A stretch of 48,150 bases of DNA, taken from positions 1-48,150 of the IMG/VR virus record IMGVR_UViG_3300000115_000002. One strand, given 5' to 3'. Origin of the DNA: a virus. Made by a program: the position numbers and the translations under genes. Of the stretch, positions 10,320 through 35,436 are shown piece by piece. The stretch's first letter is position 1. Each line of letters opens with the position of its first letter. The notes under the pieces were generated by a model that was not told where the DNA came from, made no database searches, and saw only the letters and a list, made by a program, of their open reading frames with translations.

Positions 10320-11309
10320 TTAGTCTATGCCGTAGAAGGCAGAAACCAATGCTTCACCACGTAACACCTTGGCTCCATATACATGTAAGCCACGAACAAT
10401 ATCACCAAAGCTATCAGGATCACGAATGACCTCTGTGCTAGTGATTGTCTGTGCAGTACATGTAGAAGACATGTGACCAGCAATACACTTACCTGCTGCG
10501 TTAGTCGTAGCGGCAATGTTGTTGGACTTGTACATGTCGAATCCACGGAGTTTACCAGAGCTTACCAATCCATTACGGATAGAACCCTGTCCAGCATTGA
10601 AGTCTACTGACATCAATTTTGAAGAGGATTGTACTAACTGCTCATAAAACTCAGGATTAGCCAAGAACCATCGACCTTCTTCAGGTACGCTTTGCTCATC
10701 GAGCAATCGTGCCATGTGAGAAAGAACATCAATAGGATCATGTTCACCTGATGCATAGCCAATGTCCAAGTTACCAGTACCGTCAAAAGTACCACCAGCA
10801 AGGTCAGTAGCATTGTCAGAACCTAATATATGATTAGGTGAAGACGCAGATACACCAGAGAACATAGCCGCAATTACACCCTCATCAAACGCATCACGCA
10901 AAGCGTAGGCGGCTGAAGAAGTAGCAACTTCACGGAAGTTAACGTGAGACATATTAGTTTCAATGTCATCAACGATAAACTTAAATGCGTTGGCAGTATC
11001 AACAACCAAACTAACCTCTTGGTCAGTAAGTTTTGTTGATGTTATATCTGCACCTCTTTCATACTGATAAACAGTAATCTCAGGCTCTTTAATGATCCTT
11101 ACAGTATCACCAAACGCAGTAATCTCACCAGCATAATCCGTATTTGTGATAGCTTCTGCAACAGAAGACTTACGGAAGAAGTTGAGAACTTGCTTGGAAT
11201 ATACCTTAGGCAAGAAAAATGAATTAGTTTGTCCAGATACTGAGTTACCAAAGTTGGCATTAGTATCTGTACTTGGTTCAAAAAATTGATCTGATTGGTT
11301 ATAAGCCAT
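10320..11309 (-). CDS. Major capsid protein (329 aa)
   Basis: Size, position after the scaffold gene, higher-GC codon usage and a strong terminator all fit. The sequence pattern resembles P22/T7-type HK97-fold coat proteins. Confidence 0.8.
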   Translation of the reverse strand: MAYNQSDQFFEPSTDTNANFGNSVSGQTNSFFLPKVYSKQVLNFFRKSSVAEAITNTDYAGEITAFGDTVRIIKEPEITVYQYERGADITSTKLTDQEVSLVVDTANAFKFIVDDIETNMSHVNFREVATSSAAYALRDAFDEGVIAAMFSGVSASSPNHILGSDNATDLAGGTFDGTGNLDIGYASGEHDPIDVLSHMARLLDEQSVPEEGRWFLANPEFYEQLVQSSSKLMSVDFNAGQGSIRNGLVSSGKLRGFDMYKSNNIAATTNAAGKCIAGHMSSTCTAQTITSTEVIRDPDSFGDIVRGLHVYGAKVLRGEALVSAFYGID

Positions 11310-18174: not shown

Positions 18175-19866
18175 TTAATATCCGAACTCCGTATCGGAGG
18201 GTGTGTAAGCCTGTTCCCTTCGTAAGTTTCTAAATTGACTGAATATGTCATTTACTTTAGGTCTAGACATAATTAAATATCTTAATGCATCATACGCATG
18301 ATCAGGTGCATGTGTATCTACATCTTCTGGATTAGATCGATCCAGAGGAATACATTGAAGTTCGCGTATCAGGTTAGGGCAGCAGTTAAATATCTGTATC
18401 TTAGGCCTTCCGCTTGGCTGTACTCGCAAGTATTCGTGGATCTGTATTTTTCCTTGTATCCGATTTTTATCGGCCCTACGCAGTTTATGCCCTGCTCTAA
18501 GTAGTGTCTCCCCTACTGTAGGGCCTGTAGTCCCTGTTCTGTTCCATGCGGCAGTATCTAATACGCCTTGAACTGAAAAGGGATCTTGCAATTCCATATT
18601 AATCAATAATTGTGCTAAGTCAACACCAGTTAGATTCTTCTGATATAACTCTCTGTAAATTATCAAAGTTCCATCAGAGGGATCTAAGGCTCCCCAAACA
18701 CAAGCACTCTCTGAAGCGTATCCATAGTCAATACCCTTCACTCTCTCCCAATGCACTGGTATATCAAAAGGTGTAATAACATGAGTCTCTACTTCAAACT
18801 CTGTAAACGCTGCACCCTCTGTAACATCCCAATTACCTTCCAGCAGTTGTTTTCTTTGCACTGGAGGTAGTGCTTTGAGCATCTGCTCATATCTTCCATC
18901 CTTTGCTAGATATGGATTGTCTTCTAATCTAGCAGGAATAAACTTTCTTGACAACCCATCATGGCCTAAAAAAGACTCATTAGGAGGACAAGGATTGATA
19001 TATCTCTTTCTTACCCAGCTTGATCCTGCTCCTCCTGGGTTGGCAGTACATCTCATATAAGGTGTAATATTAGGATCTGTTGTTCTTAAACGAGAAGATA
19101 AATAGTTCCATGCAAACTCTGTTGCAAGGTGTGTAATCTCATCAAAACCAATCCAGCTATAAGCTTGGCCTTGGTAACGATAAACATCTGCATCTCGTTC
19201 AAGGAACCCAAACTCTACCTTAGCTCCACTAGGGAAAGTCCAAACTTTCTCTACTTCCCGAAATCTACATCCTGGAAAAGCTTTTGGATATAATTCTCTA
19301 CTTTTATCTATAAGTTCTCGTAGCTCTGGCATAGATCTTCTGATTACCAAAGCACGATGAGCTTCTTTATGAGCGTACCTAAGCGGATCAACGATCATCG
19401 CATAGGATTTACCACCTCCTGCTGCACCTCCGTAGAGAACGTCTGTTTCAGGTGCTGCTAAGAATTCTGTCTGTGGCCCTTCGTTAGGGCTAAAGATAAC
19501 ATTTTTATTTTCTAATTCTTTTTGTAAAGATTGTGGTAAACTCTCTACAGTATCAGAAGTAACTATCTTACCTTCTTTAGGACTTTCTTTATTATCTATT
19601 TTAAATAATGTAGATCGTGAATTCTTTAATGATACCTTATGAGACTTTAACTTAGCCTCTGCTTTCTTTATAAGTCTTTCTTTACTTTTAACACTTCTAT
19701 TAGCTTTTAATCTTTCTTTAGTTACAGAAGAATAGTTGTATCCTTTAGACTTGACTCCTTTCTTTCGACCGCCTTTCTTCTTAGGCGTTCCATCAACCTT
19801 TAGAATAAACTCTCCGTTAGCATCCTTTAGGTAGTTTTCAGGATTTACTTCCCATTCTTTCTGCAT
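18175..19866 (-). CDS. terL: Terminase large subunit (563 aa)
   Basis: Walker A YGGAAGGGKSY, a downstream ATPase/nuclease-type pattern, and a Lys-rich ~130-aa N-terminal extension. Confidence 0.9.
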   Translation of the reverse strand: MQKEWEVNPENYLKDANGEFILKVDGTPKKKGGRKKGVKSKGYNYSSVTKERLKANRSVKSKERLIKKAEAKLKSHKVSLKNSRSTLFKIDNKESPKEGKIVTSDTVESLPQSLQKELENKNVIFSPNEGPQTEFLAAPETDVLYGGAAGGGKSYAMIVDPLRYAHKEAHRALVIRRSMPELRELIDKSRELYPKAFPGCRFREVEKVWTFPSGAKVEFGFLERDADVYRYQGQAYSWIGFDEITHLATEFAWNYLSSRLRTTDPNITPYMRCTANPGGAGSSWVRKRYINPCPPNESFLGHDGLSRKFIPARLEDNPYLAKDGRYEQMLKALPPVQRKQLLEGNWDVTEGAAFTEFEVETHVITPFDIPVHWERVKGIDYGYASESACVWGALDPSDGTLIIYRELYQKNLTGVDLAQLLINMELQDPFSVQGVLDTAAWNRTGTTGPTVGETLLRAGHKLRRADKNRIQGKIQIHEYLRVQPSGRPKIQIFNCCPNLIRELQCIPLDRSNPEDVDTHAPDHAYDALRYLIMSRPKVNDIFSQFRNLRREQAYTPSDTEFGY

Positions 19867-20086
19867 CTATTATCTTTTTTAATCCTTGATGACTTAGCTT
19901 ACGACCTGTTTGATACTCTAGCCAAGCTGAACCCTCTCTTAAAGAAAGAGTCTTTTCTGAAACTAATCCTTTTATTTCAGATAAGGCTTTAAGTTGCTCA
20001 GGTATTTCATTAAGCATTTTAGGGTTTTCTTCAGATATTTCATAACCAAAAGGAATGACACTACTAAGCTTCTGCCGCCTGTTCAA
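19838..20086 (-). CDS. Small HTH DNA-binding protein (82 aa) between terS and terL
   Basis: IPFGY...SLREGSAWLEYQTGRKLSHQGLKKII resembles the recombinase-domain HTH of serine recombinases. There is no catalytic domain. Confidence 0.4.
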   Translation of the reverse strand: MNRRQKLSSVIPFGYEISEENPKMLNEIPEQLKALSEIKGLVSEKTLSLREGSAWLEYQTGRKLSHQGLKKIIDAERMGSKS

Positions 20087-20450
20087 TTATTATCTCTTCT
20101 TTTGCAGGTAGTATAAATACACCACCTTGAACTTTGTGATTAACATCTAACCTGTCAGTCTTGCCTAGTCCAATACGATCTAGAATAGTTTGGGCTGCTT
20201 GAAGTCGTACATTGGCTTGAGGAACTGGCTGATTAGAATTCATTACCTCTACAAGTTTTAAAGCGGCTTGAGGAGCAGACTCAGCTAATATATTAGAGGC
20301 TAAGTCAATGATCTCATTCTTCAATGATTTCACAACCTGCCAATGATTACCTGAATAACCTGCAAGCTCTGCTGCTTTCTTTGGATCACCCCCTGATTCA
20401 ACAAGATATCCTAAAAAATCTTCTTGTTTCTCTGTCAACTCTTTTTTCAT
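20064..20450 (-). CDS. terS: Terminase small subunit (128 aa from ATG 20450)
   Basis: MKKELTEKQEDFLGYLVESGGDPKKAAELAGYSGN is the typical terS HTH signature. The track start at 20486 is the TTG of a -35 hexamer. Confidence 0.75.
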   Translation of the reverse strand: MKKELTEKQEDFLGYLVESGGDPKKAAELAGYSGNHWQVVKSLKNEIIDLASNILAESAPQAALKLVEVMNSNQPVPQANVRLQAAQTILDRIGLGKTDRLDVNHKVQGGVFILPAKEEIIIEQAAEA

Positions 20451-20457
20451 ACTGGTT

Positions 20458-20486
20458 ATTATAGGGTATAAATGAGGTTTTGTCAA
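20458..20486 (-). promoter_or_regulatory. Perfect sigma70-consensus promoter driving terS and the structural arm
   Basis: On the minus strand: TTGACA (20486-20481), 17 nt, TATAAT (20463-20458). The ATG at 20450 follows 7 nt after the -10. Confidence 0.8.
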
Positions 20487-20497
20487 CTACTTTCTAC

Positions 20498-20526
20498 TTG
20501 ACAAAACCTATTTTCACTACTATAAT
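20498..20526 (+). promoter_or_regulatory. Perfect sigma70-consensus promoter pointing into the non-coding region and early arm
   Basis: TTGACA (20498-20503), 17 nt, TATAAT (20521-20526). Confidence 0.8.
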
Positions 20527-20987
20527 ATTCCTGAACCCACCAGGGTTCACTACCACTTATAGGTAACTTTAAAGTTCCGCAGAAATACTTCGGAGTTGCG
20601 GCCTAAACCTAGTTGACACTCTGAAGTCCTTTGAAATGTTCGTCATTGCTATATATATACGGATAGCCCCCGTGGGCACCTGCGTACCCAGGCGCGTGTG
20701 CGTGTATACTTTAAAGTATTCTATAGTTTACCTAAAAGAATATACTTCAAAGTATTCAATAATCCTCCAAAGTTTCCCTCCAATAATATTCTAAAGATCT
20801 CCGAAGTCTAGTTTACAATTAAATATAAACTCTAATGAGACTCTGTAGTAAAAATTTTACTTCAGAATACTCTATAGGTTTCAATAGCTTCCAGTGTAAT
20901 TGTCGCTGTCCTTTCGGCAAACTGGCCGATCAATGCCAAAAATAAAAAAGTGACCCGTAGGGTCAAAAAATAATTTGAAAAAAAAAT
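20527..20987 (+). promoter_or_regulatory. ~460-nt non-coding control region: palindrome array, GC-rich island and direct repeats. Candidates are an operator array, origin, genome terminus or structured leader RNA.
   Basis: No credible ORF. Seven ACT-N4-AGT-type sites, a 17-nt direct repeat TATACTT(T/C)AAAGTATTC at 20705 and 20741, a GC island at 20661-20705, and a 5' hairpin at 20532-20549. Confidence 0.6.
20941..20965 (-). terminator. Hairpin plus T-run oriented for the minus strand (an orphan terminator-like element)
   Basis: Stem TGACCC / GGGTCA (20951-20956 / 20960-20965) with a 3-nt loop. On the minus strand it is followed by CTTTTTTATTTTT. Confidence 0.4.
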
Positions 20988-21015
20988 TTGACAATCGAAA
21001 AAGCTGTGCTAATTT
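20988..21015 (+). promoter_or_regulatory. Sigma70-type promoter with extended -10 for the first early gene
   Basis: TTGACA (20988-20993), 16 nt, TGcTAATTT (-10 at 21010-21015). Confidence 0.6.
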
Positions 21016-21063
21016 TGAATGGCATCGACGGCATCAGGCCGAAGAGCAATCGGAGTTTTAACT

Positions 21064-21369
21064 ATGACAAATAAATATGATAACATTGATCAGAATAAAA
21101 AAGCATCGTTTCGACAGTATGACTTTACTGTTTATAAATTAACTCTTCCTCTTGCAAAGAAAAGAAGAATAACTGAAAAAACAAAGGAAGGTAAAGTTAA
21201 CCCTAAGTTTAGAGTGCTGAAAGCTAGAGTCGGTGCTAGTTTATCCAAATTCTATGCTGATCAAGATAAATTTCTGACCCATGGCGATGTTCAGAAGTTT
21301 ATTGCTTCTCCAGTAATACCTAAAGAAGTATTGGAGTTAATTGATCTCGATCTTAAAGCAAAGAAGTAA
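21064..21369 (+). CDS. First early protein (101 aa from ATG 21064), basic
   Basis: GGAG RBS (cggagttttaactATG). The track start at 21019 would sit on the predicted transcription start. Confidence 0.55.
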   Translation: MTNKYDNIDQNKKASFRQYDFTVYKLTLPLAKKRRITEKTKEGKVNPKFRVLKARVGASLSKFYADQDKFLTHGDVQKFIASPVIPKEVLELIDLDLKAKK

Positions 21370-21376
21370 ACTATCT

Positions 21377-21405
21377 AGGGAGATGAAATACTCTCCCTTT
21401 TTTTA
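21377..21405 (+). terminator. Rho-independent terminator
   Basis: Stem AGGGAGA / TCTCCCT (21377-21383 / 21392-21398) followed by a T-run. Confidence 0.75.
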
Positions 21406-21421
21406 TCTATCGGAGTATAAT

Positions 21422-21544
21422 ATGAAAAAGTTTAGAAAGCAAAGAAGAGAAGTTATTACTAATAAATACTGGTTATCAATACCTTGGAAGTTAACTGATT
21501 CTCAAAGATATTATATAGGTTTAACAGAGAGTTATTACTTATAA
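21422..21544 (+). CDS. Small early protein (40 aa)
   Basis: RBS cggagtataatATG. The longer track ORF from 21341 would span the terminator hairpin. Confidence 0.35.
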   Translation: MKKFRKQRREVITNKYWLSIPWKLTDSQRYYIGLTESYYL

Positions 21545-21553
21545 ATATATATT

Positions 21554-21578
21554 GGGGTCTTTCGAGGCCCCTAGTTTT
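21554..21578 (+). terminator. Hairpin with UUCG tetraloop, a possible terminator
   Basis: GGGGTCT-TTCG-AGGCCCC followed by TAGTTTT. Confidence 0.5.
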
Positions 21579-21638
21579 ACTTTAATATATATTTATAGAC
21601 ATAACTTGGATCGTGTTTTAATATATATTATTACTGTG

Positions 21639-21667
21639 TTGACATGATTTGGATCGTCGGTCACACT
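21639..21667 (+). promoter_or_regulatory. Weak sigma70-like promoter
   Basis: TTGACA (21639-21644), 17 nt, CACACT. The -35 is consensus and the -10 is poor. Confidence 0.3.
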
Positions 21668-21696
21668 TTGAACAACACAAATCGGAGAGTATATAT

Positions 21697-21996
21697 ATGA
21701 AAGAAAATATCTTAGATCAGTTAACAGACATTCCTTATATTGTAAGGGATCTCGGTCATATCATCGAGCAAATAAAAGAAGTTAAAACTAACATAAATTA
21801 CTATCGGAGTTTGAAAGATCGTGACGGAGTTTATCATAAAGAAATAAATGATTCGAGACATCAAGCATTAGTCCAAGCGATGACCGAATCTCAGGAGTTA
21901 TCTAGAAGATGTAAAGATTATGGTGAGTCCTCATTTTACTTGGGGATTCTTGCTTATTTAAATTCAGACAGATCGGAGAAAGCTGATGAAGATTAA
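21697..21996 (+). CDS. Early hypothetical protein (99 aa)
   Basis: RBS tcggagagtatatatATG. Confidence 0.55.
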   Translation: MKENILDQLTDIPYIVRDLGHIIEQIKEVKTNINYYRSLKDRDGVYHKEINDSRHQALVQAMTESQELSRRCKDYGESSFYLGILAYLNSDRSEKADED

Positions 21997-22186
21997 AATA
22001 GAAACACCATTATATCTAGAATTATATTCCCGGCTTGCCGCTTGGCATGTCGATGATGGTAATTCCTCAATGGTCACTAAAGATTCTAATGGTGACGAAG
22101 TATATACTTCAGGGTATCAAGATAGATTCAACGACGCTGCTGATGAAGTATGTTTTATTTTGGATGAATACTTTGAGAAAATCTAA
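21986..22186 (+). CDS. Early hypothetical acidic protein (66 aa)
   Basis: ORF overlapping the end of the upstream gene. Confidence 0.45.
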   Translation: MKIKIETPLYLELYSRLAAWHVDDGNSSMVTKDSNGDEVYTSGYQDRFNDAADEVCFILDEYFEKI

Positions 22187-22254
22187 AGCTCTTCAGAGTC
22201 CTTTTTATTGTACCCTATGGGTTAGTATTACTTTTACCTTTTGGGATGCTTAGA

Positions 22255-22398
22255 ATGGATTTAAGAGAGTCTGAGAGGCAGTGTAGTCTATGCATAGACA
22301 GTTATAATATACTGTCTATGATTAGGTTAAATCATAATCAGTTTATATGTGCTGGATGCTGGCGCATTAAATTTAAAAAGAAACCAATTATAAAATAA
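22255..22398 (+). CDS. Possible small zinc-ribbon protein (47 aa)
   Basis: My translation is MDLRESERQCSLCIDSYNILSMIRLNHNQFICAGCWRIKFKKKPIIK, a CxxC...CxxC pattern. It is below the track's size cutoff and has a weak RBS. Confidence 0.3.
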   Translation: MDLRESERQCSLCIDSYNILSMIRLNHNQFICAGCWRIKFKKKPIIK

Positions 22399-22411
22399 GG
22401 TGGATCGTGAT

Positions 22412-22675
22412 ATGAGTTTAACTAAGTTGATTGGGTTTGAAGAAGTCAATGATAGTTGTTGTCGTGTTAGTTTACTTGATATGTTTGGTAGAGAAAAGAC
22501 TAAGACGTTTGATTGTATTACCGCCAAGATTCGGCATAGTTATTATTCTTGGAAAGATGGTATGTTAATTCAAGAGGCTTTCCCTTACTTAAATAAATCA
22601 GACCGAGAGTTTTTCTTTTCAGGACTAAGTGATGATGAATGGAATAATATAATGGGGAGTGATGACGATGAGTAG
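22412..22675 (+). CDS. Early hypothetical protein (87 aa)
   Basis: ATG at 22412 preceded by AAGGTGGA. The track start is a GTG 12 nt upstream. Confidence 0.5.
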   Translation: MSLTKLIGFEEVNDSCCRVSLLDMFGREKTKTFDCITAKIRHSYYSWKDGMLIQEAFPYLNKSDREFFFSGLSDDEWNNIMGSDDDE

Positions 22676-23309
22676 GGTGCTAGTCCTTTGTGAGTTTAGT
22701 GATACTGTTACTTCAGCGTTTAGAAGAAAAGGCTGGACAGCAGTATCTAATGATATATTGCCTACTGAAAGTCGAACTGGATTACATATTCAAGGTGATT
22801 GTTTCGAGGCAATTAATACTGCTAGTGAATGGTGGGAAGGTGAAATAGATTTAATTATAATGCATCCACCATGTACAGCATTGTCAGTTAGTGGTAATTC
22901 TACTTATGGTAAAGGCAAAGCTAAACATAACGAAAGAATTAAATCAATAGATTGGACGTTAAGTTTATATTACTTTGCTCAAGGCAAAGCTAAACATGTG
23001 GCGATGGAAAATCCAGTTAATGTTTTACCTGAGAAAGCTACTCAGTTTATTCAACCTTATCAGTTTGGTCATCTTGAACAAAAGAAAACTGGTTTGTGGC
23101 TACACAATTTACCTAAGTTAGTAGATACTTGCAACGTCTATGATAAAATGATGGAGCTACCTAGACAAGAAAGAATGAGACTACATTACTTGCCGCCATC
23201 AGCAGATAGAGGTAAAATAAGATCAATAACTTATGATGGTATTGCTGAGGCTATGGCAGATCAATGGGGGTCTTATATTAATTCATTATCAACAAAGGAG
23301 TGTGCATGA
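22659..23309 (+). CDS. Short DNA (cytosine-5) methyltransferase-like protein (216 aa)
   Basis: Catalytic PPC motif (IIMHPPCTALSVSG), ENP (motif VI) and QPYQFGH...KTGLW (motif VIII). The N-terminus LCEFSDTVTSAF replaces the canonical FxGxG, and there is no obvious target-recognition domain. Confidence 0.55.
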   Translation: MMTMSRVLVLCEFSDTVTSAFRRKGWTAVSNDILPTESRTGLHIQGDCFEAINTASEWWEGEIDLIIMHPPCTALSVSGNSTYGKGKAKHNERIKSIDWTLSLYYFAQGKAKHVAMENPVNVLPEKATQFIQPYQFGHLEQKKTGLWLHNLPKLVDTCNVYDKMMELPRQERMRLHYLPPSADRGKIRSITYDGIAEAMADQWGSYINSLSTKECA

Positions 23310-23578
23310 AAAATTTAGTTTTACTTTTAGCAATTATTATATCTTCTGGCTGTACTTGGTATGCAGAATTTGAGCATGTCTCAAGTATTCCTAATGGGAA
23401 TCCTTTCAACGATAGAAAAGAAACTTCTGTCGATGCTATATGGTCGGGGATTAGAGCAGAGAAGGATGGATGGTATATTGATTCGGCTGTTGGTTGGGAT
23501 ACATCAGGTGAATATGAAGGCAGAAATCCTTACGGAAGATTCAAAGTCGGTAAAGAAATAAAGACTTGGCAGAAATGA
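23306..23578 (+). CDS. Early-expressed lipoprotein (90 aa)
   Basis: AAGGAG RBS. The signal peptide MKNLVLLLAIIISSGC has a lipobox Cys. Confidence 0.65.
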   Translation: MKNLVLLLAIIISSGCTWYAEFEHVSSIPNGNPFNDRKETSVDAIWSGIRAEKDGWYIDSAVGWDTSGEYEGRNPYGRFKVGKEIKTWQK

Positions 23579-23636
23579 TAGAGTTTTCAATTGGATTTAT
23601 AATCGGTTATTTAATTTGTAAATATGGAGATTAAAA

Positions 23637-23852
23637 ATGGCACATAAATATATATTTAGCGAAATACCTAACGATGATGAAGGTCGTCTATTAGTTAAAC
23701 TAATGAGAAAACATTTGAATCGTGAAGGGTACAGGTTAAAACTGAGGGGTCAGTACCTAAAAGATGGGTTAAACTGGAGATTATATACTCATGGTCAACC
23801 CATTAGTAAAAGTAAGAACCTAAGAATCTATATAGAACCTAAAGAACTATAG
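23637..23852 (+). CDS. Early hypothetical basic protein (71 aa)
   Basis: ORF with a GGAG RBS. Confidence 0.5.
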   Translation: MAHKYIFSEIPNDDEGRLLVKLMRKHLNREGYRLKLRGQYLKDGLNWRLYTHGQPISKSKNLRIYIEPKEL

Positions 23853-23948
23853 GAAAAAAATAATATAGATCTTATAAGACCTTTAGAACCTTATAAGATT
23901 TATATCTTACCATGAATTTTAATAATGTTCAACGCTTTCGGAGGCGAT

Positions 23949-24560
23949 ATGACAATAAAATTATCTAAAACAAAAAAAATGCCAGCTAAATCTTGGTCAA
24001 TTCCTGCAATTAAAACATGCCCAGCGGCTATTGATACTGAAACTGGAGGGCTTGTAGAGTTATGTAAAGATTGTTATGCGACTAAAGGGTTTTACAATAT
24101 GCCCAATGTTAAAGATATTAGGGAGCATAACATGAAAGATTGGAAGCGCGATGAATGGGAAGATGAAATGGTAGATTTAATATCAGAAGAAAAATACTTT
24201 AGGTGGCTCGATAGTGGCGACATGTACACAGTTAAATTAGCAACTAAATTTCACAATGTCATCAAGAGAACTTCCAACTGTAAACACTGGCTCCCTACAA
24301 GAATGTATAAGTTTAATAAGTTTAAAGATATCCTGGGTAAAATAAATAAACTTTCTAATGTAGCTTTAAGATTGTCTAGCGATTCTCTGAAAGGTGCAAA
24401 GATAAATATGAAAGGATTCACTACAACCACAGTAGTTCCTAAAGGTACAATAGCTGTGAAAGATGCATGGCTCTGTCCAGCCAGTAACAATAATGGGAAG
24501 TGTGGCGATTGCAGAGTATGCTGGGACAAAGATATAACAGTAGCCTACATACACCATTAA
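23949..24560 (+). CDS. Cys-rich protein (203 aa), reminiscent of the phage GP88 family
   Basis: WSIPAIKTCPAA...LCKDCYATKGFY and the C-terminal CPAS..GKCGDCRVCW. RBS ttcggaggcgatATG. Confidence 0.35.
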   Translation: MTIKLSKTKKMPAKSWSIPAIKTCPAAIDTETGGLVELCKDCYATKGFYNMPNVKDIREHNMKDWKRDEWEDEMVDLISEEKYFRWLDSGDMYTVKLATKFHNVIKRTSNCKHWLPTRMYKFNKFKDILGKINKLSNVALRLSSDSLKGAKINMKGFTTTTVVPKGTIAVKDAWLCPASNNNGKCGDCRVCWDKDITVAYIHH

Positions 24561-24580
24561 ATACCATGCAGGTAACTGGG

Positions 24581-24608
24581 TTGACATCGTTTTTCGATCT
24601 GCTAGAGT
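24581..24608 (+). promoter_or_regulatory. Sigma70-type promoter with extended -10
   Basis: TTGACA (24581-24586), 16 nt, TGcTAGAGT (-10 at 24603-24608). Confidence 0.55.
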
Positions 24609-24651
24609 GGCCCTGCCATCTGGCGAAACTAATTAACTTTCGGAGTTTTAT

Positions 24652-25614
24652 ATGACTATAGTATCTTTGTTTGACAATTCAAAAGAAATTAATGTATTAC
24701 GTGATAGTGGTTACGGTGCTGCTAACTTTGATATTTTTGAAGCACCAATAAGTTATACTGTTCCTGCACACTCCTTTGTTCCAAGGGATGAAGAACATTT
24801 AATACCCGATCAGAAAGCATTATATCGAAGTGACAATCAACAATTTTTAGGAATGCATAGCAGAAAATATCAAACAGTTTCTCATAAGTCTATGATTGAT
24901 ACTTCAAGATCAGTATTAGAAAGAAGCGAATTAATATTAGACGGTGTGACCGAAGAGATCAGAGTAAATGAAACTGGGACAATGTGCTTTGTTCAACACA
25001 ATATTCCTAATCATTGTGTAACTACTCCTGATGGAGATACTTCATCACTTCAATTACTACATATTAATTCTACTAATGGTATATGGCCTTATCAAGGATC
25101 AGTAGGTACATTGCAATCTGCTTGTTTAAACCATCAAGTATTCTTAACAGGGACTGCTGGTATCTACAAGGCAAGGCATACTAACGCTTTGAATATTAAT
25201 CACGGTGCAAATTTAATTAGTAAGACAGTGCATACCATGATTAATCAAAATAAAGTATGGCATCAATGGTATAATACTAAATCAACAGAGACTGAGGCGG
25301 TTAAATTATATTGTGAAGCCGCTAATTTAAATTCTCTTTTAAAGATGACTGATCAAGAAAGATCAGAGCATCTTATGCTGGGAGAAAAGATTAATTCTAA
25401 CTTGACTTACATGCTTCAGAAGCATAGATTTTATCAAGATACTCTTGGCAAAAACATGTGGGCTGTGTATAATACACTCACTGATTGGTCAACGCATTTT
25501 GGTAAAGAAGACAGTAAAACTACTAGAAAAAATGCCGCTGATGCTAATACTAAATTTATTAAAAGGAATGAAAACGTAAGAAATGTGCTTAAACATTTCC
25601 CTATTGCGGCATAG
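24652..25614 (+). CDS. DUF932-like phage/plasmid protein (320 aa)
   Basis: The pattern ALYRSDNQQFLGMHSRKYQTVSH resembles DUF932. This call is from memory only. Confidence 0.4.
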   Translation: MTIVSLFDNSKEINVLRDSGYGAANFDIFEAPISYTVPAHSFVPRDEEHLIPDQKALYRSDNQQFLGMHSRKYQTVSHKSMIDTSRSVLERSELILDGVTEEIRVNETGTMCFVQHNIPNHCVTTPDGDTSSLQLLHINSTNGIWPYQGSVGTLQSACLNHQVFLTGTAGIYKARHTNALNINHGANLISKTVHTMINQNKVWHQWYNTKSTETEAVKLYCEAANLNSLLKMTDQERSEHLMLGEKINSNLTYMLQKHRFYQDTLGKNMWAVYNTLTDWSTHFGKEDSKTTRKNAADANTKFIKRNENVRNVLKHFPIAA

Positions 25615-25682
25615 TATATACCTCCGACTACCTGAGCATGTAGAGAAACTGCTTACCTTTAATATATTATTAGGAGAAGTAT

Positions 25683-25847
25683 ATGGTTTATGAATGTACA
25701 TTAGATTTAGGTACAACTCACCCAGTTCGTGAAGCAAGAAATGAAGAAGAGTTTATTGAAAATTTAATTGCTGAATATAACTCTCAATGCGATGGTCTAT
25801 TTGACATCAGGCGAGAAGATATTTCAAACATTAGGGATGTATTATGA
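25683..25847 (+). CDS. Small hypothetical protein (54 aa)
   Basis: My translation is MVYECTLDLGTTHPVREARNEEEFIENLIAEYNSQCDGLFDIRREDISNIRDVL. It has an AGGAGA RBS and an ATGA overlap with the next gene. It is below the track cutoff. Confidence 0.55.
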   Translation: MVYECTLDLGTTHPVREARNEEEFIENLIAEYNSQCDGLFDIRREDISNIRDVL

Positions 25848-26065
25848 GTCGTACAGATACAAAAGAAGAATTTTATACTGAACTTGACGATTGGTGGGGT
25901 CAGTTATGGGGTAATAGAATATGTGCTTCACCTCCCAATCAAAGAATAAAAGAAAAATTCTTTTATTATGTATGGCAAAAAGCTAGTGACGCAGAGTTTA
26001 AAATCAACGATGAAGATATATGTAATTTATTTTCTGGTTTCCTTAACAAACTAGGAGAACAGTAA
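25844..26065 (+). CDS. Hypothetical protein (73 aa)
   Basis: Translationally coupled ORF. Confidence 0.5.
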   Translation: MSRTDTKEEFYTELDDWWGQLWGNRICASPPNQRIKEKFFYYVWQKASDAEFKINDEDICNLFSGFLNKLGEQ

Positions 26066-26349
26066 TGATTACAGAAGATATCCTGGAATTAAAAGATAAA
26101 CTTTTAAACCCTAAGCGAGGCGACAAGTATACTACTTGGTATTATCTAGATGGCTGGAGGCTCTGCGACATTGTAGTAGGTAACAAAAAGTGTACAGTTA
26201 AACCTACTGTAAGAGGTAAAGGCTTAACGCTTTCTAGAACTGCATTAAAAAGAGAACTTGAAAGTGTTTATTGGTATGCTGCAAAGAATAAAGCAACGCC
26301 GATAGACGGTACAAAAAGATCTAAAAGATGGCAAGTTGATTTCGCTTGA
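26065..26349 (+). CDS. Hypothetical protein (94 aa)
   Basis: TAATG-coupled ORF. Confidence 0.5.
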   Translation: MITEDILELKDKLLNPKRGDKYTTWYYLDGWRLCDIVVGNKKCTVKPTVRGKGLTLSRTALKRELESVYWYAAKNKATPIDGTKRSKRWQVDFA

Positions 26350-26374
26350 CGGATCTACCAGCGTTTGTTAAAAT
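26346..26374 (+). promoter_or_regulatory. Sigma70-type promoter with extended -10 upstream of the SSB/replication genes
   Basis: TTGACG (26346-26351), 17 nt, TGtTAAAAT (-10 at 26369-26374). Confidence 0.65.
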
Positions 26375-26406
26375 TTAAGACACATAAACAGCGGAGAAAT
26401 AGAAGT

Positions 26407-26829
26407 ATGGTAATAGAAGGTGTAGCTTATTGGGCAAGTGTTACTTCACCGAACACTACATTTGAACCTTGTTATACTGTTAATTTAGTTATTAATGGTG
26501 ATGATGCGGATCGTCTTAGATCTGAGGGTATCAAGGTAGTTGATAAGGAAGAAGGCCCTACAGTAGTAGTAAAGCGTAAGGTCAATGGGCCTAATGGTAT
26601 GATTCGTAAAGCCCCTAAGCTGATTGATCGTAATCGTGAGAACCTTAACTGTAAGATCGGCAACGGTTCTAAAGTTAAAGTTCAATACAAACCTTGGGAA
26701 GTTGAACGTAATGGTCAGAGTTATAAAGGCTTAGACTTTCAAGGTATGCAAGTTCTTGATCTTGTCACATATAATATGGATGGCGATGAGTTTGACATAG
26801 AAAGTGATGATGAGGAGATGGAACTGTGA
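26407..26829 (+). CDS. ssDNA-binding protein, T7 gp2.5-like (140 aa)
   Basis: GNGSKVKVQYKPWEV...GLDFQGMQVLDLV parallels T7 gp2.5 GGGSKLKVKY...VKLQLESVMLVEL. It has an acidic C-terminal tail DGDEFDIESDDEEMEL. RBS gcggagaaatagaagtATG. Confidence 0.7.
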   Translation: MVIEGVAYWASVTSPNTTFEPCYTVNLVINGDDADRLRSEGIKVVDKEEGPTVVVKRKVNGPNGMIRKAPKLIDRNRENLNCKIGNGSKVKVQYKPWEVERNGQSYKGLDFQGMQVLDLVTYNMDGDEFDIESDDEEMEL

Positions 26830-27062
26830 CAGGTCAAACTGTTACAATAGATAGTAAGACTTATGATTTTGATTGTTTAGATGAGAAGTCTAAAGACTAT
26901 ATTCTTATGATCACTGAGATCAAAAGAGAACTTAATGACTTAGCTAGAAAAGGAAAGATATTAAAAGCTGGGGAGTTAAAGCTCACTGAGGATCTAGGCA
27001 AGTGGCTTGCTGAAAAACAAATAAAATCGATAAATATTACTGAACCAGAAACGGGGCCTTAA
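26826..27062 (+). CDS. Hypothetical protein (78 aa)
   Basis: ORF ending inside the terminator hairpin. Confidence 0.5.
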   Translation: MTGQTVTIDSKTYDFDCLDEKSKDYILMITEIKRELNDLARKGKILKAGELKLTEDLGKWLAEKQIKSINITEPETGP

Positions 27063-27078
27063 CAAAGGCCCTTTTTTT
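27054..27078 (+). terminator. Rho-independent terminator
   Basis: GGGCCTT-AACA-AAGGCCC followed by T7. Confidence 0.8.
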
Positions 27079-27091
27079 CATCGGAGGAAAA

Positions 27092-28759
27092 ATGGTAGAG
27101 AAAAGACACTTTGTAGAATATCACAAACCTTGCAGGGTATGTGGTAGCAGCGATGCAGTTAGCATTAACAATGATGATACGGCTCGTTGTTTTAGTTGTG
27201 AACATTGGTTCTCATCCTACAGTGGAGAAGATAAAGTGAAAGATTTTCAAACGCACCAACGTAACACCAAAGAAACTTCTGGCTTTAAGATGGAAGGAAC
27301 ATTTCAAAAGCTAACTGATCGTAACATTTCAGAAAGTACGGCTAGAAAGTACGGAGTAAAATCTGAGTACGCATCTTCAAATAACTCAGGGAACAAACAC
27401 TATTACCCTTACTATATTGCTAATGAAGTAGCAGGGACTAAAGTTCGCAAGTGTGATACTAAAGAGTTTACTTGGATAGGATCTCCTAAAGGTGTAATGC
27501 TTTTTGGTCAACAACTATTCCAAAAAGGTGGCAAGTTCCTTACGATATGTGAGGGAGAGTGTGACGCAATGGCTGCTCACGAAATGATGGATTCAAAATG
27601 GCCTGTTGTTTCAGTAAAGAATGGCATACAAGGTGCGCTCAAAGACATCAAAGAGAATTTAGAATTCGTAGAATCATTTGATAATGTAGTAATAAACTTT
27701 GACAATGATTCTTTAGGAAAGAAAAAAGCAATTGAAGTAGCTGATTTAATATCACCAGGTAAAGCTAGAATAGTTTCTTTATCTGATGAGTTTAAAGATG
27801 CTAATGATATGCTTAGAAACAATAGAAGAGATGCATACAAAGCAGTATGGTGGAGTGCTAAGTCTTATACTCCTGCTGGCGTACTAAATATTTCTGACAT
27901 GAAAGATGAATACTTTACTCGCAAAGAGATGAAGTCTATTCCTTATCCTTGGCAAGGACTAAATGAAAAACTATTTGGGCTTAGGCAAGGCGAATTAGTT
28001 ACCTTGACAGGCGGTACAGGCTTAGGTAAATCATCTGTAACAAGAGAGCTAGAACATTTTATACTTAAAAATACTAGTGATAACTTAGGTATTCTTGCAC
28101 TAGAAGAAAACTGGCAAAGAACAGTAGACGGTTTGCTATCTATTGAGGCTAACTCTAGGCTTTACATCAAGCAGATACGAGAGTCTTTCTCTCAAGAAAA
28201 ACTAAATAATTATTACGAAAGTCTTTACGGTAAGGATGGCGAGAACAGGCTATGGGTACACTCACATTTAGGTGAGCATAACGTAGAAGAACTTTTCTCA
28301 AAGATACGTTATATGGTTCAAGGGTTAGATTGCAAATGGATTATTGTTGATCACCTTGGAATGATGACTTCTGCATTAGCGGAGGGAGATGAGCGCAGAG
28401 CCATTGATAATATTATGACTAGGCTTAGATCGTTAGTAGAAGAAACTGGTGCTGGTCTAATACTGGTATCACATCTTAGAAGAATAGATGGTAACAAAGG
28501 GCATGAGCAAGGTGCTGAAGTATCTCTTGCACACCTCAGAGGTTCTAATGGTATTAGTCAGATAAGTGATTGTGTCATTGCTCTTGAACGTAATCAACAG
28601 TCTGATGATGCAGTAGAAGCCGCCACTACAAAACTAAGAATTCTTAAATCTAGATACACTGGAGAGGTTGGATTAGCTGGAGCATTGCATTATAATAAAG
28701 AAACAGGGAGGCTTAGTGAAGTCTTTAATTACGAAGATGGCGAGGAGGTAGAGCTTTGA
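27092..28759 (+). CDS. Bifunctional primase-helicase, T7 gp4-like (555 aa)
   Basis: Zn finger CRVCGSSD...CFSCEHW, TOPRIM EGECDAMA...NFDNDSLG, and the DnaB-type Walker A TGGTGLGKSS. Confidence 0.95.
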   Translation: MVEKRHFVEYHKPCRVCGSSDAVSINNDDTARCFSCEHWFSSYSGEDKVKDFQTHQRNTKETSGFKMEGTFQKLTDRNISESTARKYGVKSEYASSNNSGNKHYYPYYIANEVAGTKVRKCDTKEFTWIGSPKGVMLFGQQLFQKGGKFLTICEGECDAMAAHEMMDSKWPVVSVKNGIQGALKDIKENLEFVESFDNVVINFDNDSLGKKKAIEVADLISPGKARIVSLSDEFKDANDMLRNNRRDAYKAVWWSAKSYTPAGVLNISDMKDEYFTRKEMKSIPYPWQGLNEKLFGLRQGELVTLTGGTGLGKSSVTRELEHFILKNTSDNLGILALEENWQRTVDGLLSIEANSRLYIKQIRESFSQEKLNNYYESLYGKDGENRLWVHSHLGEHNVEELFSKIRYMVQGLDCKWIIVDHLGMMTSALAEGDERRAIDNIMTRLRSLVEETGAGLILVSHLRRIDGNKGHEQGAEVSLAHLRGSNGISQISDCVIALERNQQSDDAVEAATTKLRILKSRYTGEVGLAGALHYNKETGRLSEVFNYEDGEEVEL

Positions 28760-30525
28760 AACAATTAGTTTTCGATATCGAAACTGATGATGTTAAAGCA
28801 ACAAAGATATGGTGTATATGTTGTATTGACATTGATACTAATCAAGAATATTCATTCACTCCTGACAACTTGGAGGCTGGCTATGAGTTATTAAAGTCAG
28901 CCGATAAACTTATAGGACATAACATCATTGGCTTTGATGTCCCAGTAATCGAGCAATTGGTCGGTGTATCTTTATGGGATAAAAAGTTAGTAGATACTCT
29001 GGTTCTTTCTAGACTGTTTAATCCTGTACGTGAAGGTAATCATGGCTTAGAGAAATGGGGATACGATTTAGGAAGTCCTAAAATAGATTTTAGTGAATAC
29101 GGTACTTACTCTGCTGAGATGTTGAAGTATTGTATGCAAGATGTCAGGCTTAATGCAAAGGTATTTACTGCTCTCAAGGCTGAAAGCAAAGGCTTTTCTC
29201 CTAAGAGTGTTGAAATAGAAATGGAAACTTATAAGATAATTTCTGCTCAGAGACAGAAAGGATTCTTATTAGATGTTCCTTTTGCATCTAAGTTACTAGC
29301 ACAATTACAAACAAAGATGGACACGTTAGTTACTAAAGTACATGAGACATTTCAACCTAAAGAAGAAACTAAATATTTATATCCTAATGTAGGTAAATCT
29401 GGGAACCTATTAAAAACAGCAACAGATAACTTTGGTAAGAATACAAGGCTAACACCAGAAGAGTTTACTGAACTTGAAAAGTTATATAACTCAGAAGGTA
29501 AGAAAGTAAAAGTTCCTAGAGTAGAAGTAACAGAATTTAATTTAGGATCTAGGAAACAAATAGGAGAATACTTAATAGACTTTGGTTGGGAGCCTGAAGT
29601 GTTTACTCCAACAGGACAACCGCAAGTAGATGAAAAGATTTTATCTAAAGTAAAAGACATACCTGAAGCAGGACTCATATGTGATTATCTTATGTATCAA
29701 AAAAGAGTAGCACAGGTAATTTCCTGGATTGAACATGTAGAAGATGACGGTAGAGTTCATGGCTTTGTAAATACTAACGGTGCTATTACAGGTAGAATGA
29801 CTCATAGCTGGCCTAACTTAGCTCAAGTGCCTAGCTCAAACGCACCTTATGGTAAAGAGTGTAGAAGTTGTTGGACTGTTCCTAAAGGATATAACCTTGT
29901 AGGTATTGATGCTTCTCAACTAGAGCTTAGAATGTTAGCACACTATATGAACGATGAGGATTATACTAATGAAATTATTAACGGAGACATTCATACCACT
30001 AATCAAAACCTTGCAGGACTTGAATCTAGAAGTCAGGCAAAAACTTTCATATATGCACTTATATACGGAGCAGGAAACCAAAAACTTGGAGCAGTGGCTA
30101 AAGGAAGTAAAGCACTTGGAACAAAACTTAGAAAACAGTTTATTGATAATCTCCCATCATACAAGGCTCTTACAGATAGAGTTGAAAGAGCATCAGCAAA
30201 AGGTTTCCTTAAAGGGTTAGATGGTAGAAAAATTTATGTACGAACTAGACATGCTGCACTGAATAGTTTATTGCAAGGAGCAGGATCAATTTTAATGAAA
30301 CAGGCGTTAATATTATTTCAAGAATACATAAAAGAAAATAAACTTGATGCTGCTTTTGTCTGCAATGTACATGATGAATGGCAAGTAGAAGTATCTGAAA
30401 AAGATGCTGATGAAGTAGGGAAGCTAGGAGTATCCGCTTTAGTTAAAGCAGGAGAAATGCTTGATCTTAAATGTCCATTAGACGGTGATTATAATGTCGG
30501 AAGAAATTGGTCAGAAACCCATTAA
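28756..30525 (+). CDS. Family A DNA polymerase with 3'-5' exonuclease, T7 gp5-like (589 aa)
   Basis: Exo I FDIETD, motif A DASQLELR, motif B RSQAKTFIYALIYGAG (Tyr at the position equivalent to E. coli Pol I F762 / T7 Y526) and motif C NVHDEW. Confidence 0.95.
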   Translation: MKQLVFDIETDDVKATKIWCICCIDIDTNQEYSFTPDNLEAGYELLKSADKLIGHNIIGFDVPVIEQLVGVSLWDKKLVDTLVLSRLFNPVREGNHGLEKWGYDLGSPKIDFSEYGTYSAEMLKYCMQDVRLNAKVFTALKAESKGFSPKSVEIEMETYKIISAQRQKGFLLDVPFASKLLAQLQTKMDTLVTKVHETFQPKEETKYLYPNVGKSGNLLKTATDNFGKNTRLTPEEFTELEKLYNSEGKKVKVPRVEVTEFNLGSRKQIGEYLIDFGWEPEVFTPTGQPQVDEKILSKVKDIPEAGLICDYLMYQKRVAQVISWIEHVEDDGRVHGFVNTNGAITGRMTHSWPNLAQVPSSNAPYGKECRSCWTVPKGYNLVGIDASQLELRMLAHYMNDEDYTNEIINGDIHTTNQNLAGLESRSQAKTFIYALIYGAGNQKLGAVAKGSKALGTKLRKQFIDNLPSYKALTDRVERASAKGFLKGLDGRKIYVRTRHAALNSLLQGAGSILMKQALILFQEYIKENKLDAAFVCNVHDEWQVEVSEKDADEVGKLGVSALVKAGEMLDLKCPLDGDYNVGRNWSETH

Positions 30526-32813: not shown

Positions 32814-32899
32814 AAAAGCAGAAAGAAACAAAAAATATCATAAGAAAAATAAAGCTAAAACAAAAAAATATCGTGCAGAACAATTGAGGTTAAAAGAAT

Positions 32900-34798: not shown

Positions 34799-34801
34799 TA
34801 A

Positions 34802-35434: not shown

Positions 35435-35436
35435 AA

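Follow-up and report, generated by a model that had tools for sequence, protein, structure and literature searches.

In phage lambda, the sigma-70 promoters PR and PRM stand back to back with their starts about 82 bp apart, and the cI mRNA is leaderless. In phi29, the early promoters A2b and A2c diverge from the late promoter A3, and the set is switched by protein p4. Strong near-consensus promoters that are read by the host polymerase are familiar from T7 (A1-A3), T5 (PN25), and lambda (PL). To our knowledge, almost nothing is known about gene control in the very abundant phages of SAR11 and other marine bacteria, and SAR11 lacks genetic tools. Here we describe two full-consensus promoters that stand back to back in the genome of a marine phage, at the point where its two gene arms diverge. 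The window, by which we mean the whole stretch of DNA that was analysed (48,150 nucleotides), contains both arms.

We put the probability at about 75% that this region is a single bidirectional promoter of a ~48-kb phage related to HTVC103P, which is read by the host polymerase and has a leaderless terS on one side. According to this proposal, the housekeeping (sigma-70-type) RNA polymerase of the host would recognise both promoters. Transcription of the packaging and structural arm would begin from the minus-strand promoter, P(-), with its first nucleotide at the A of the terS AUG or no more than about 2 nt away. Ribosomes would then bind the 5'-terminal AUG of the terS mRNA without a Shine-Dalgarno (SD) sequence, and the genes behind terS would use SD sites of their own. 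The plus-strand promoter, P(+), would start the replication arm with a 5'-terminal stem-loop that probably serves to stabilise the 5' end of the RNA. Behind it would come a leader of about 530 nt, carrying an array of ACTYYRRAGT sites that may be an origin, a packaging site, or an operator array.

A conserved promoter pair where the gene arms diverge

The window is an assembly of about 48 kb that is circular, as its first 105 nt are identical to its last 105 nt. From 20450, the minus arm crosses the junction and reaches 37321; the plus arm extends from 20533 as far as a terminator at 36701-36724. TerL is 63-66% identical to the TerL proteins of HTVC103P and HTVC115P, TerS shares 60% identity with the TerS annotated in HTVC103P, and the gene order terS, small ORF, terL, portal is the same as in these two phages. 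The small ORF between terS and terL (82 aa) returned no match. The two-arm genome, the terminase and portal homologues, and a T7-like replisome (primase-helicase, DNA polymerase, and gp2.5-like SSB) place the window, on the evidence of its sequence, in the HTVC103P-type / HMO-2011-like marine podovirus family. This group has been described previously (bioRxiv 10.1101/2019.12.14.876532). The closest cultured relatives, where their hosts are known, infect Alphaproteobacteria, and the TerS and TerL relatives, which are the only guide to the host, suggest Pelagibacter (SAR11). No phage RNA polymerase or sigma factor was recognised among the ORFs scanned.

P(-), the promoter of the packaging arm, consists on the minus strand of TTGACA (20481-20486), a 17-nt spacer (20464-20480), and TATAAT (20458-20463). 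P(+), the promoter of the replication arm, consists on the plus strand of TTGACA (20498-20503), a 17-nt spacer (20504-20520), and TATAAT (20521-20526). Each of the four hexamers matches the consensus at 6/6 positions. The -35 hexamers have 11 bp between them (20487-20497), and the -10 elements are 57 bp apart. Taking the seventh nucleotide after each -10 element as the point of initiation places the two predicted starts about 82 bp from each other. Between the -35 hexamers the DNA is 75% A+T, and A-tracts are frequent.

Chance is excluded as the source of this pair. Exact 12/12 matches to the two hexamers occur twice in the window, compared with 0.02 +/- 0.14 expected from 100 dinucleotide-preserving shuffles, and within 15-26 kb the only 12/12 sites are P(-) and P(+). 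A preliminary description of this DNA had reported back-to-back perfect sigma70-consensus promoters and had called full matches of this kind rare for natural promoters; every position it gave matches the sequence. Moreover, a profile built from the relatives, with the window left out, scores P(-) and P(+) at 28.4 and 24.6 bits and finds no other site above 8 bits in the 48-kb window. Among 24 long relatives, the promoter pair scores 25-38 bits and everything else scores 16 bits or less. A full consensus does not in itself guarantee the highest output, since escape from the promoter can become the limiting step.

The window may also contain internal promoters of lower strength, such as 25445-25473, so "only two promoters" should be read as only two of such strength. 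A conservation scan of the candidate at 25445, made through relatives of a DUF932 gene, found no relatives. Wider flanks around terS yielded weak hints only.

How well is the pair conserved? We compared 47 non-redundant relatives, a set that includes the window. The -35 element is TTGACA in 47/47 relatives on P(-) and in 47/47 on P(+), and the spacer is exactly 17 nt at both promoters in all 47. The -10 element of P(-) is TATAAT in 26 relatives and TATACT in 21; that of P(+) is TATAAT in 25, TATACT in 21, and TACAAT in one. The hexamers are near-invariant, whereas the spacers agree between genomes at 7.5-8.0 of 17 positions (~45%). The exact promoter also precedes the ATG by 6-13 nt in another 59 distinct upstream regions from metagenomes. 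In the cultured phages HTVC103P and HTVC115P, the plus-side promoter has a 16-bp spacer with a TG extension.

Both promoters thus have the -35 element, the -10 element with its A2 and T6, the 17-bp spacer, and the restriction of selection to these elements that mark housekeeping (sigma-70-type) promoters. The preliminary description had suggested looking for the arrangement in related genomes, and there the hexamers and the 17-nt spacing are kept. This comparison supports the view that P(-) and P(+) behave as real housekeeping sigma-70-type promoters, with starts that are predicted from their elements. The parts of the pair are ordinary, yet they are unusually well conserved. In the literature, we found neither an earlier account of these promoters, or of a leaderless terS, for this phage group nor mapped 5' ends, in vitro transcription experiments, or N-terminal data on its proteins. 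The pair offers a precise, testable model for one abundant phage group, in which two host-type promoters stand where the gene arms diverge. The model predicts that the host housekeeping polymerase recognises the classical TTGACA-17-TATAAT.

The replication-arm leader and the inverted repeat

The P(+) transcript is predicted to start near 20533/20534, so that its 5' end would carry a stem-loop, UGAACCC-ACCA-GGGUUCA (20532-20549, plus strand), with a folding energy of -10.3 kcal/mol (z = -5.7). When the sequences are folded singly, a stem-loop of -5 kcal/mol or stronger begins 4-9 nt after the -10 element in 36 of the 47 relatives, and its G-U pairs occur in the sense strand. RNAalifold predicted nothing from a gapless alignment of the stem-loop, and the count of covarying pairs is not significant (64.6% of cells paired vs 62.6% in shuffles).

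From P(+) to the first conserved plus-strand gene extends an untranslated leader of about 530 nt (20533-21063, plus strand), which contains no conserved ORF and has a fold z-score of -3.74. An alignment of 30 sequences reveals conserved blocks in this leader: the CTAGTTGACA box (20609-20618), the block TATATATATA (20650-20659), and, adjoining the latter, a GC-rich core (20660-20700). Seven copies of a 10-bp quasi-palindrome, ACTYYRRAGT, lie between 20566 and 20807. In the relatives, this motif occurs in the leader at 12.4 per kb vs 0.52 per kb, an enrichment of about 24-fold. Rfam, applied at gathering thresholds to the whole window and at relaxed thresholds to 20400-21100, gave nothing beyond microRNA-level matches of the kind expected by chance; a tRNA search found no tRNAs. 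The CTAGTTGACA box at 20609 was considered as a second promoter and rejected, as no acceptable -10 element lies 16-18 nt downstream of it in either the window or the consensus.

The first gene of the replication arm (21064-21369, plus strand) encodes a protein of 101 aa and is preceded by the SD sequence cGGAG. We tested this protein as a candidate regulator. Its AlphaFold model is confident and all-helical (pLDDT 86.6), the PDB contains nothing that matches it in sequence or in fold, and it has only 11 close homologues.

Why would a phage place so long a leader in front of its replication genes? It is possible, although we would bet against it, that the main job of P(+) is replication or packaging. 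Transcription from P(+) into the AT-rich block, together with the ACTYYRRAGT array, could activate or prime a T7-style origin, or the array could be the site of the terminase. The leader would in that case act in cis as DNA; either role is compatible with our main explanation. The leader without a conserved ORF, the conserved TATATATATA block beside the GC-rich core, the strong enrichment of the quasi-palindrome in this one region, and the T7-like replication proteins of the phage all point in this direction. The cumulative GC skew also turns at about 21 kb, but this turn coincides with the switch in gene strand and is not independent evidence. For a packaging role, the array lies just upstream of terS, and the cosB site of lambda has a similar placement, adjoining the small-terminase gene Nu1. 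However, the first plus-strand gene has no well-scoring promoter of its own, so P(+) must also serve expression, and in this phage group an origin or pac site has so far been unmapped. Our analysis flags this conserved non-coding repeat region of about 530 nt as a candidate origin or packaging site.

The bidirectional promoter that we favour contains a perfect 12-bp inverted repeat, AGGTTTTGTCAA (20475-20486) / TTGACAAAACCT (20498-20509). The two promoters together form a larger quasi-palindrome (20457-20527), whose 33-nt arms (20457-20489 and 20495-20527) are 76% complementary. The 12-bp repeat had been pointed out in the preliminary description, and it exists as described, but it is not a fixed regulatory unit: in the relatives, the distance between the two -35 hexamers ranges from 7 to 72 bp, and a fixed operator would not tolerate this variation. 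In the family consensus, the recurring part is an extended -35 element, cTTGACAAA, on each promoter. In the explanation that we favour, the inverted repeat is the product of two promoters that share this extended -35 element and face away from each other.

The spacers hold a more subtle signal. Across genomes, the spacers of P(-) and P(+) co-vary in register, with 1696 parallel differences compared with 599 +/- 155 when columns are permuted and 300-677 in controls with a slid register. Moreover, the two spacers are more alike within a genome than between genomes (9.1 vs 7.5 of 17). Template-switch correction of quasi-palindromes is a known mutational process, and the extra similarity is most simply explained by such repair, or by gene conversion, within the quasi-palindrome. 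If the co-variation instead reflects selection, then some factor reads both spacers. The promoters would then be one co-evolving control cassette, through which this factor co-ordinates the replication and packaging arms, a reading that we consider doubtful. If it were true, expression of nearly all of the 48-kb genome would depend on one bidirectional switch, and timing would be set after initiation, by the leaderless start on one side and the 5' stem-loop with its long repeat-carrying leader on the other.

A regulatory site of a more conventional kind, in which a dimeric phage or host protein reads the -35 and spacer DNA of the quasi-palindrome and switches or balances the arms, as in phi29 or at lambda OR, seems to us improbable. 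The perfect repeat with its long complementary arms, the likeness of the spacers within a genome, and their parallel differences would all be expected of such a site, and some form of control would be an advantage to a phage that lacks its own polymerase and has a consensus promoter for each arm. However, the variable distance between the half-sites rules out a single dimer of fixed geometry across both, and many lineages have no extra similarity between the arms (5-8 of 17). Matches to the shared spacer motif elsewhere in the window are not above chance, so there is no third copy, and no operator-like conserved element was found between the promoters. The preliminary description took a consensus promoter ahead of the packaging and structural arm to imply early repression, competition or occlusion between the pair, or an unusual temporal programme; none of our results demonstrates repression or such a programme. 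Nor did the Pfam and PHROG scans find an HTH or other regulator or repressor domain in the ORFs tested, many of the small ones being without function by annotation, and no known fold was matched by the model of the first early protein. Finally, template-switch correction would give the same co-variation without any function.

The predicted start of terS

The putative terS gene (20064-20450, minus strand) encodes 128 aa and matches the PHROG family phrog_2538, "terminase small subunit", with an E value of 5.8e-07. A mechanical ORF call begins this gene at 20486, which is the TTG of the P(-) -35 hexamer; we correct the start to the ATG at 20450-20448. In the alignment to phrog_2538, residue 4 of the product that begins at this ATG falls on profile position 2. 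The ATG comes 7 nt after the -10 element of P(-), and the predicted transcription start coincides with it or lies no more than about 2 nt away. An SD sequence precedes most genes of this phage, whereas the terS ATG has none: its best anti-SD duplex is at +2.9 kcal/mol, compared with a median of -6.1 kcal/mol for 55 other ORFs of the window. The preliminary description had noted the 7-nt distance, the missing SD sequence, and the identity of 20486 with the -35 TTG, and all three are present in the sequence.

Is the short distance from promoter to start codon a peculiarity of this genome? An in-frame ATG follows the -10 element in 47/47 relatives, in a search that took only ATG and so does not exclude other start codons. 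On mRNAs that lack a leader, start codons other than AUG function poorly. The gap between the -10 element and this ATG is 6 nt in five relatives, 7 nt in 19, 8 nt in two, 9 nt in three, 10 nt in nine, 11 nt in three, 19-20 nt in five, and 32 nt in one. It is therefore 6-8 nt in 26/47 relatives and 9-11 nt in 15/47, making 6-11 nt in 41/47. With a gap of 9-11 nt, the transcript would not begin precisely on the A but would carry a leader of 2-4 nt. In one relative, the gap is kept even though the N-terminus of TerS is 11 residues longer. The same layout is found in the cultured phages HTVC103P (gap 6 nt) and HTVC115P (gap 7 nt), where the same ATGs are annotated in GenBank. In about half of the relatives, an in-frame stop lies upstream of the terS ATG and there is no alternative start; in the remainder, the commonest alternative is again the TTG of the -35 hexamer. 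The predicted 5' end on the terS side is also unstructured. The mean fold energy of its first 27 nt is -0.14 kcal/mol, compared with -7.6 kcal/mol at P(+), and a stem-loop of -5 kcal/mol or stronger is found there in 0/47 relatives.

These features make it very probable that the mRNA from which terS is translated is leaderless or nearly so, as the preliminary description had predicted from this one genome; the gap of 6-11 nt in most relatives, the absence of an SD sequence, the upstream stops, and the unstructured 5' end all agree with its prediction. Such a start is not obligatory in the group, since true leaders precede terS in 6/47 relatives (19-32 nt) and, separately, in the cultured phage HTVC033P (~150 nt). 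Nor does the layout extend to HMO-2011 and the CRP roseophages, in which other genes precede terS. A scan of metagenomes found no contig that begins at the predicted start.

Could terS instead be translated from a longer upstream transcript or from another start codon, with the adjoining promoter incidental or used for something else? The ORF in the window is open up to the TTG at 20486, some members of the group have the leaders just described, and a minus-oriented terminator-like hairpin (20965-20951) hints at minus-strand transcription entering the region, but we consider this alternative very improbable: that TTG belongs to the -35 hexamer, a stop separates promoter and ATG in about half of the relatives, the phrog_2538 profile begins to align at residue 4 of the ATG-20450 product, ribosomes would initiate poorly inside a long transcript without an SD sequence, the hairpin is not conserved in the relatives, and the constrained distance from the -10 element to the ATG is hard to account for in any other way.

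We know of no demonstration so far of leaderless translation in SAR11, and our literature search brought up no tailed phage of bacteria for which a leaderless terS is reported. In the alphaproteobacterium Sinorhizobium meliloti, 171 leaderless mRNAs have been mapped, all of which start with AUG (PMC3616915). The predicted terS mRNA resembles these in its AUG start, its lack of an SD sequence, and the position of the promoter directly before the start codon, although the S. meliloti starts are mapped and that of terS is predicted from sequence. A compact, strongly conserved bidirectional promoter with a predicted leaderless side is also a candidate expression part for marine Alphaproteobacteria.

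Comparison with known systems

The bidirectional promoter proposed here shares features with several known arrangements and is identical to none. Warman et al. reportedly described, in 2021, a class of bidirectional promoters that derive from symmetry, with overlapping opposed -10 elements and starts about 18 bp apart. The window is similar in that transcription would diverge from one short symmetrical stretch of DNA. However, its -10 elements lie 57 bp from each other and its predicted starts are correspondingly distant, and we rejected assignment to this class. Unlike promoters of that class, P(-) and P(+) are complete and separate and are joined at their -35 ends.

The strong promoters of the coliphages (T7, T5, and lambda PL) provide a parallel in promoter quality: their -35 and -10 elements are very good, the spacing is 17 bp, and the DNA upstream is AT-rich. 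In those phages, such promoters drive early genes only, and the later classes use a phage polymerase or a modified host polymerase. In the window, by contrast, one of the two promoters stands in front of the packaging and structural genes, and the ORF scans recognised neither a phage polymerase nor a sigma factor.

Phi29 offers a parallel in genome position: its divergent promoters also lie close together at the boundary between early (replication) and late (structural) genes, and they also use the host polymerase, as we propose here. However, the late promoter of phi29 has no -35 element and depends on an activator that binds defined sites, whereas both -35 elements of the window are perfect, and our searches found neither an activator nor a repressor nor a fixed binding site in it.

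In geometry, the window pair resembles PR and PRM of lambda. The predicted starts in the window are also 82 bp apart, and in both cases one transcript begins on the AUG of its first gene, as a prediction in the window. There are also differences. Neither lambda promoter has the consensus sequence, PRM has little activity unless it is activated, and CI and Cro have three defined operators, placed between the promoters and over them. The window pair is full consensus, no operator is conserved between its promoters, and the spacing of the starts varies from 78 to 143 bp in the relatives. Finally, the leaderless gene of lambda encodes its repressor, whereas the gene predicted to be leaderless in the window encodes a terminase subunit.

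A conserved pair of predicted divergent promoters

The two gene arms of the window diverge exactly at a pair of predicted promoters. P(+), which heads the plus-strand replication arm, consists of TTGACA (20498-20503), 17 nt, and TATAAT (20521-20526). P(-), which heads the minus-strand packaging and structural arm, carries the same hexamers at 20486-20481 and 20463-20458, again 17 nt apart. The two -35 hexamers are separated by 11 bp and lie in a perfect 12-bp inverted repeat (20475-20486/20498-20509). The hexamers, their spacing and the repeat had all been reported in a preliminary description, and all match the sequence. Exact matches to TTGACA-N17-TATAAT number 2 in the window versus 0.02 expected from shuffled sequences, and allowing one mismatch yields only 4 sites.

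Starting at 20450, the minus arm crosses the assembly junction and reaches ~37321; it encodes TerS, a small ORF, the large terminase, the portal, a probable capsid protein and large virion proteins. On the plus arm (~21064 to 36620) are genes for a methyltransferase, a gp2.5-like SSB, primase-helicase, DNA polymerase, endonuclease VII, exonuclease, ribonucleotide reductase and thymidylate synthase. The arms converge at a terminator-like hairpin of 9 pairs (36701-36724, plus strand), with the gene for the small subunit of ribonucleotide reductase on one side and the first minus-strand ORF on the other. Because the first 105 nt are identical to the last 105 nt (1-105 = 48046-48150), the window is a circular or terminally redundant assembly of ~48,045 bp; a long minus-strand ORF spans the junction. 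Among the ORFs scanned, we found no RNA polymerase, sigma factor or recognizable DNA-binding regulator. An 82-aa ORF between terS and terL (19838-20086, minus strand), with a small ORF in the same place in HTVC103P, contains a stretch that by eye resembles a helix-turn-helix (SLREGSAWLEYQTGRKLSHQGLKKII); searches of Pfam, PHROG and the PDB gave no match for it.

The closest cultured relatives are the Pelagibacter phages HTVC103P, HTVC104P and HTVC115P (TerS 55-60% and TerL 63-66% identity), followed by HTVC033P, the CRP-series roseophages and the SAR116 phage HMO-2011. All of these nearer relatives infect Alphaproteobacteria, and weaker matches include Vibrio and Aeromonas phages. A description of the HTVC103P group (bioRxiv 10.1101/2019.12.14.876532) gives it two modules and lists no polymerase.

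How well are the promoters conserved? We retrieved 80 relatives from viral contigs via TerS, located the best promoter on either side of the divergence point, and collapsed the set to 47 non-redundant sequences, the window among them. In all 47, the -35 element of both promoters is TTGACA and both spacers are exactly 17 nt, while the -10 element is TATAAT or TATACT, with a single TACAAT. The spacers themselves share just 7.5-8.0 of 17 positions between genomes. Conserved hexamers and spacing around diverged spacer sequences indicate selection on the former, as is characteristic of functional promoters. A 33-nt profile trained on the relatives only, with the window left out, scores the window's two sites at 28.4 and 24.6 bits and the rest of the 48 kb at 8 bits or less. 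The same holds for 24 relatives covered over up to 10 kb per side: 25-38 bits for the pair, and no more than 16 bits for any other site. A separate metagenome scan recovered 59 further distinct examples of the exact promoter 6-13 nt ahead of the ATG. Extensive comparison therefore supports reading both sites as promoters.

The relatives' consensus lengthens the -35 element to cTTGACAAA. The segment between the -35 hexamers is 75% A+T with frequent A-tracts, and such DNA resembles upstream (UP) elements. HMO-2011 (handle L158), which has the same two-arm layout, carries a perfect TTGACAAAG...-17-TATAAT promoter (31726-31754, minus strand) 26 nt ahead of the structural gene gp42, which suggests that phages of other marine Alphaproteobacteria use the same extended consensus.

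Translation start of terS

The terS ATG (20450) follows the minus-strand -10 hexamer by 7 nt, and the preliminary description proposed that the mRNA is essentially leaderless. Comparison of the 47 relatives strongly supports this prediction for the lineage. The gap between -10 and ATG is 6 nt in 5 sequences, 7 in 19, 8 in 2, 9 in 3, 10 in 9 and 11 in 3; it is 19-20 nt in 5 and 32 nt in 1. The gap is preserved even where TerS has a longer N-terminus, as in the relative L066, whose protein starts MNGYLPQKHKERELTEKQQ (gap 7 nt). An in-frame ATG is present at the terS start position in every relative, in a search that admitted ATG alone as a start. The longer mechanical terS ORF begins on the TTG of the -35 hexamer. 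In about half of the relatives, an in-frame stop lies between promoter and ATG with no alternative start; in the remainder, that same TTG is the most frequent alternative.

Other features of the gene point the same way. Complementarity to the anti-SD is absent (+2.9 kcal/mol versus a median of -6.1 for the window's other ORFs), and the predicted transcript is unstructured over its first 27 nt in 47/47 (mean -0.14 kcal/mol). The PHROG terminase profile alignment begins at residue 4 of the ATG-20450 product, and the same ATGs are annotated in GenBank for HTVC103P (gap 6) and HTVC115P (gap 7). Leaderless mRNAs are documented in the alphaproteobacterium S. meliloti, where 171 were mapped, all with AUG starts (PMC3616915). 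Exceptions with a leader of 19 to ~150 nt occur in 6 of the 47 relatives and, separately, in cultured HTVC033P, and in HMO-2011 and the CRP phages the arm that holds terS opens with a different gene.

The P(+) leader

Most relatives (36 of 47) have a stem-loop with a fold energy of -5 kcal/mol or below that begins 4-9 nt after the P(+) -10 hexamer, at the extreme 5' terminus of the predicted transcript. Its sequence in the window is UGAACCC-ACCA-GGGUUCA (20532-20549, plus strand; -10.3 kcal/mol). The stem varies by lineage (AACCC/GGGUU, AGCCC/GGGCU, GACCC/GGGUC) and includes G-U pairs in the sense strand; a covariation test on the gapless alignment was not significant. The simplest reading is an RNA-stabilizing 5'-terminal hairpin.

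The first conserved plus-strand gene begins only at 21064, after a cGGAG Shine-Dalgarno sequence, and thus the leader is ~530 nt long. Conserved ORFs are absent from it, and it is predicted to fold at lower energy than shuffled sequence (z = -3.74). Seven 10-bp quasi-palindromes, ACTYYRRAGT, form an array at 20566-20807 (at 20566, 20587, 20618, 20708, 20744, 20765 and 20799), versus about six in the window's other 47.5 kb. Density in the relatives is 12.4 per kb in the leader versus 0.52 per kb elsewhere (~24-fold). The array resembles iterons or binding sites. A conserved non-coding module (20609-20700) shared by the window, HTVC103P and HTVC033P opens with a CTAGTTGACA box and continues with AAATGT (20634-20639), a TATATATATA run (20650-20659) and a GC-rich core with near-invariant GGCC(A/T)CCTGC (GGGCACCTGC at 20674-20683 in the window). 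The module has no Rfam match, and the CTAGTTGACA box was rejected as a promoter, having no usable -10. The leader and its array may serve as an origin, as a region recognized by the terminase, or as an array of operators. The leader also holds a minus-oriented terminator-like hairpin (TGACCCTACGGGTCA, then a T run; 20951-20965), not conserved in relatives.

The gene at 21064-21369 (plus strand) encodes a basic, all-helical protein of 101 aa (AlphaFold pLDDT 86.6) with just 11 close homologues found and no PDB fold match. One homologue carries a Flavobacteriales metagenome-bin label, probably a binning error.

Possible interplay of the arms and relation to known systems

Is the inverted repeat an operator? 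Our data do not support this reading. Across relatives, 7 to 72 bp separate the two -35 hexamers, so the repeat, which a repeat finder extends to 33-nt arms at 76% complementarity, is not one fixed-geometry operator; it exists because two promoters with identical extended -35 elements point away from each other. The paired spacers are nonetheless more alike within a genome than expected (9.1 versus 7.5 of 17). Parallel, in-register differences on both arms between genomes number 1696 versus 599 +/- 155 for permuted columns (slid-register controls, 300-677), and a few clades show the strongest co-variation. Such a pattern could arise without any function, through template-switch repair or gene conversion within a quasi-palindrome. 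Alternatively, some factor might read both spacers; the shared spacer motif has no third copy elsewhere in the window.

The preliminary description also took the pair to imply early repression, competition or occlusion between the promoters, or an unusual temporal programme. Nothing in this analysis demonstrates repression, occlusion or an unusual programme, and the repression reading is not supported. Further control points are possible within the arms. A candidate promoter, TTGGCA-17-TATAAT with a TG extension (25445-25473, plus strand), lies 4.9 kb into the replication arm, in the 3' part of a DUF932 gene. Three relatives (L126, L130 and L148) have an exact or near-exact TTGACA-17-TATAAT 5.2-6.6 kb into this arm. 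The site possibly represents a conserved promoter within the arm, upstream of the SSB, primase and polymerase genes. In the minus arm, a strong intrinsic terminator (GGGGGAGGC...GCCTCCC, then a T run; 10313-10288) directly follows ORF 10320-11309, the probable major capsid gene.

The predicted transcription starts are ~82 bp apart in the window, the same geometry as lambda PR/PRM, where simultaneous occupancy is possible with some interference. The distance is 78-143 bp in relatives, and therefore any promoter interaction is not tightly constrained. Our literature search found no earlier description of this promoter pair or leaderless terS arrangement in the group. Its elements are all of familiar types (sigma-70-type promoters, a divergent promoter pair, leaderless mRNA). 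What sets the arrangement apart is a full consensus that is invariant throughout a large and abundant marine phage group, together with a predicted leaderless terS as the first gene of the structural arm.
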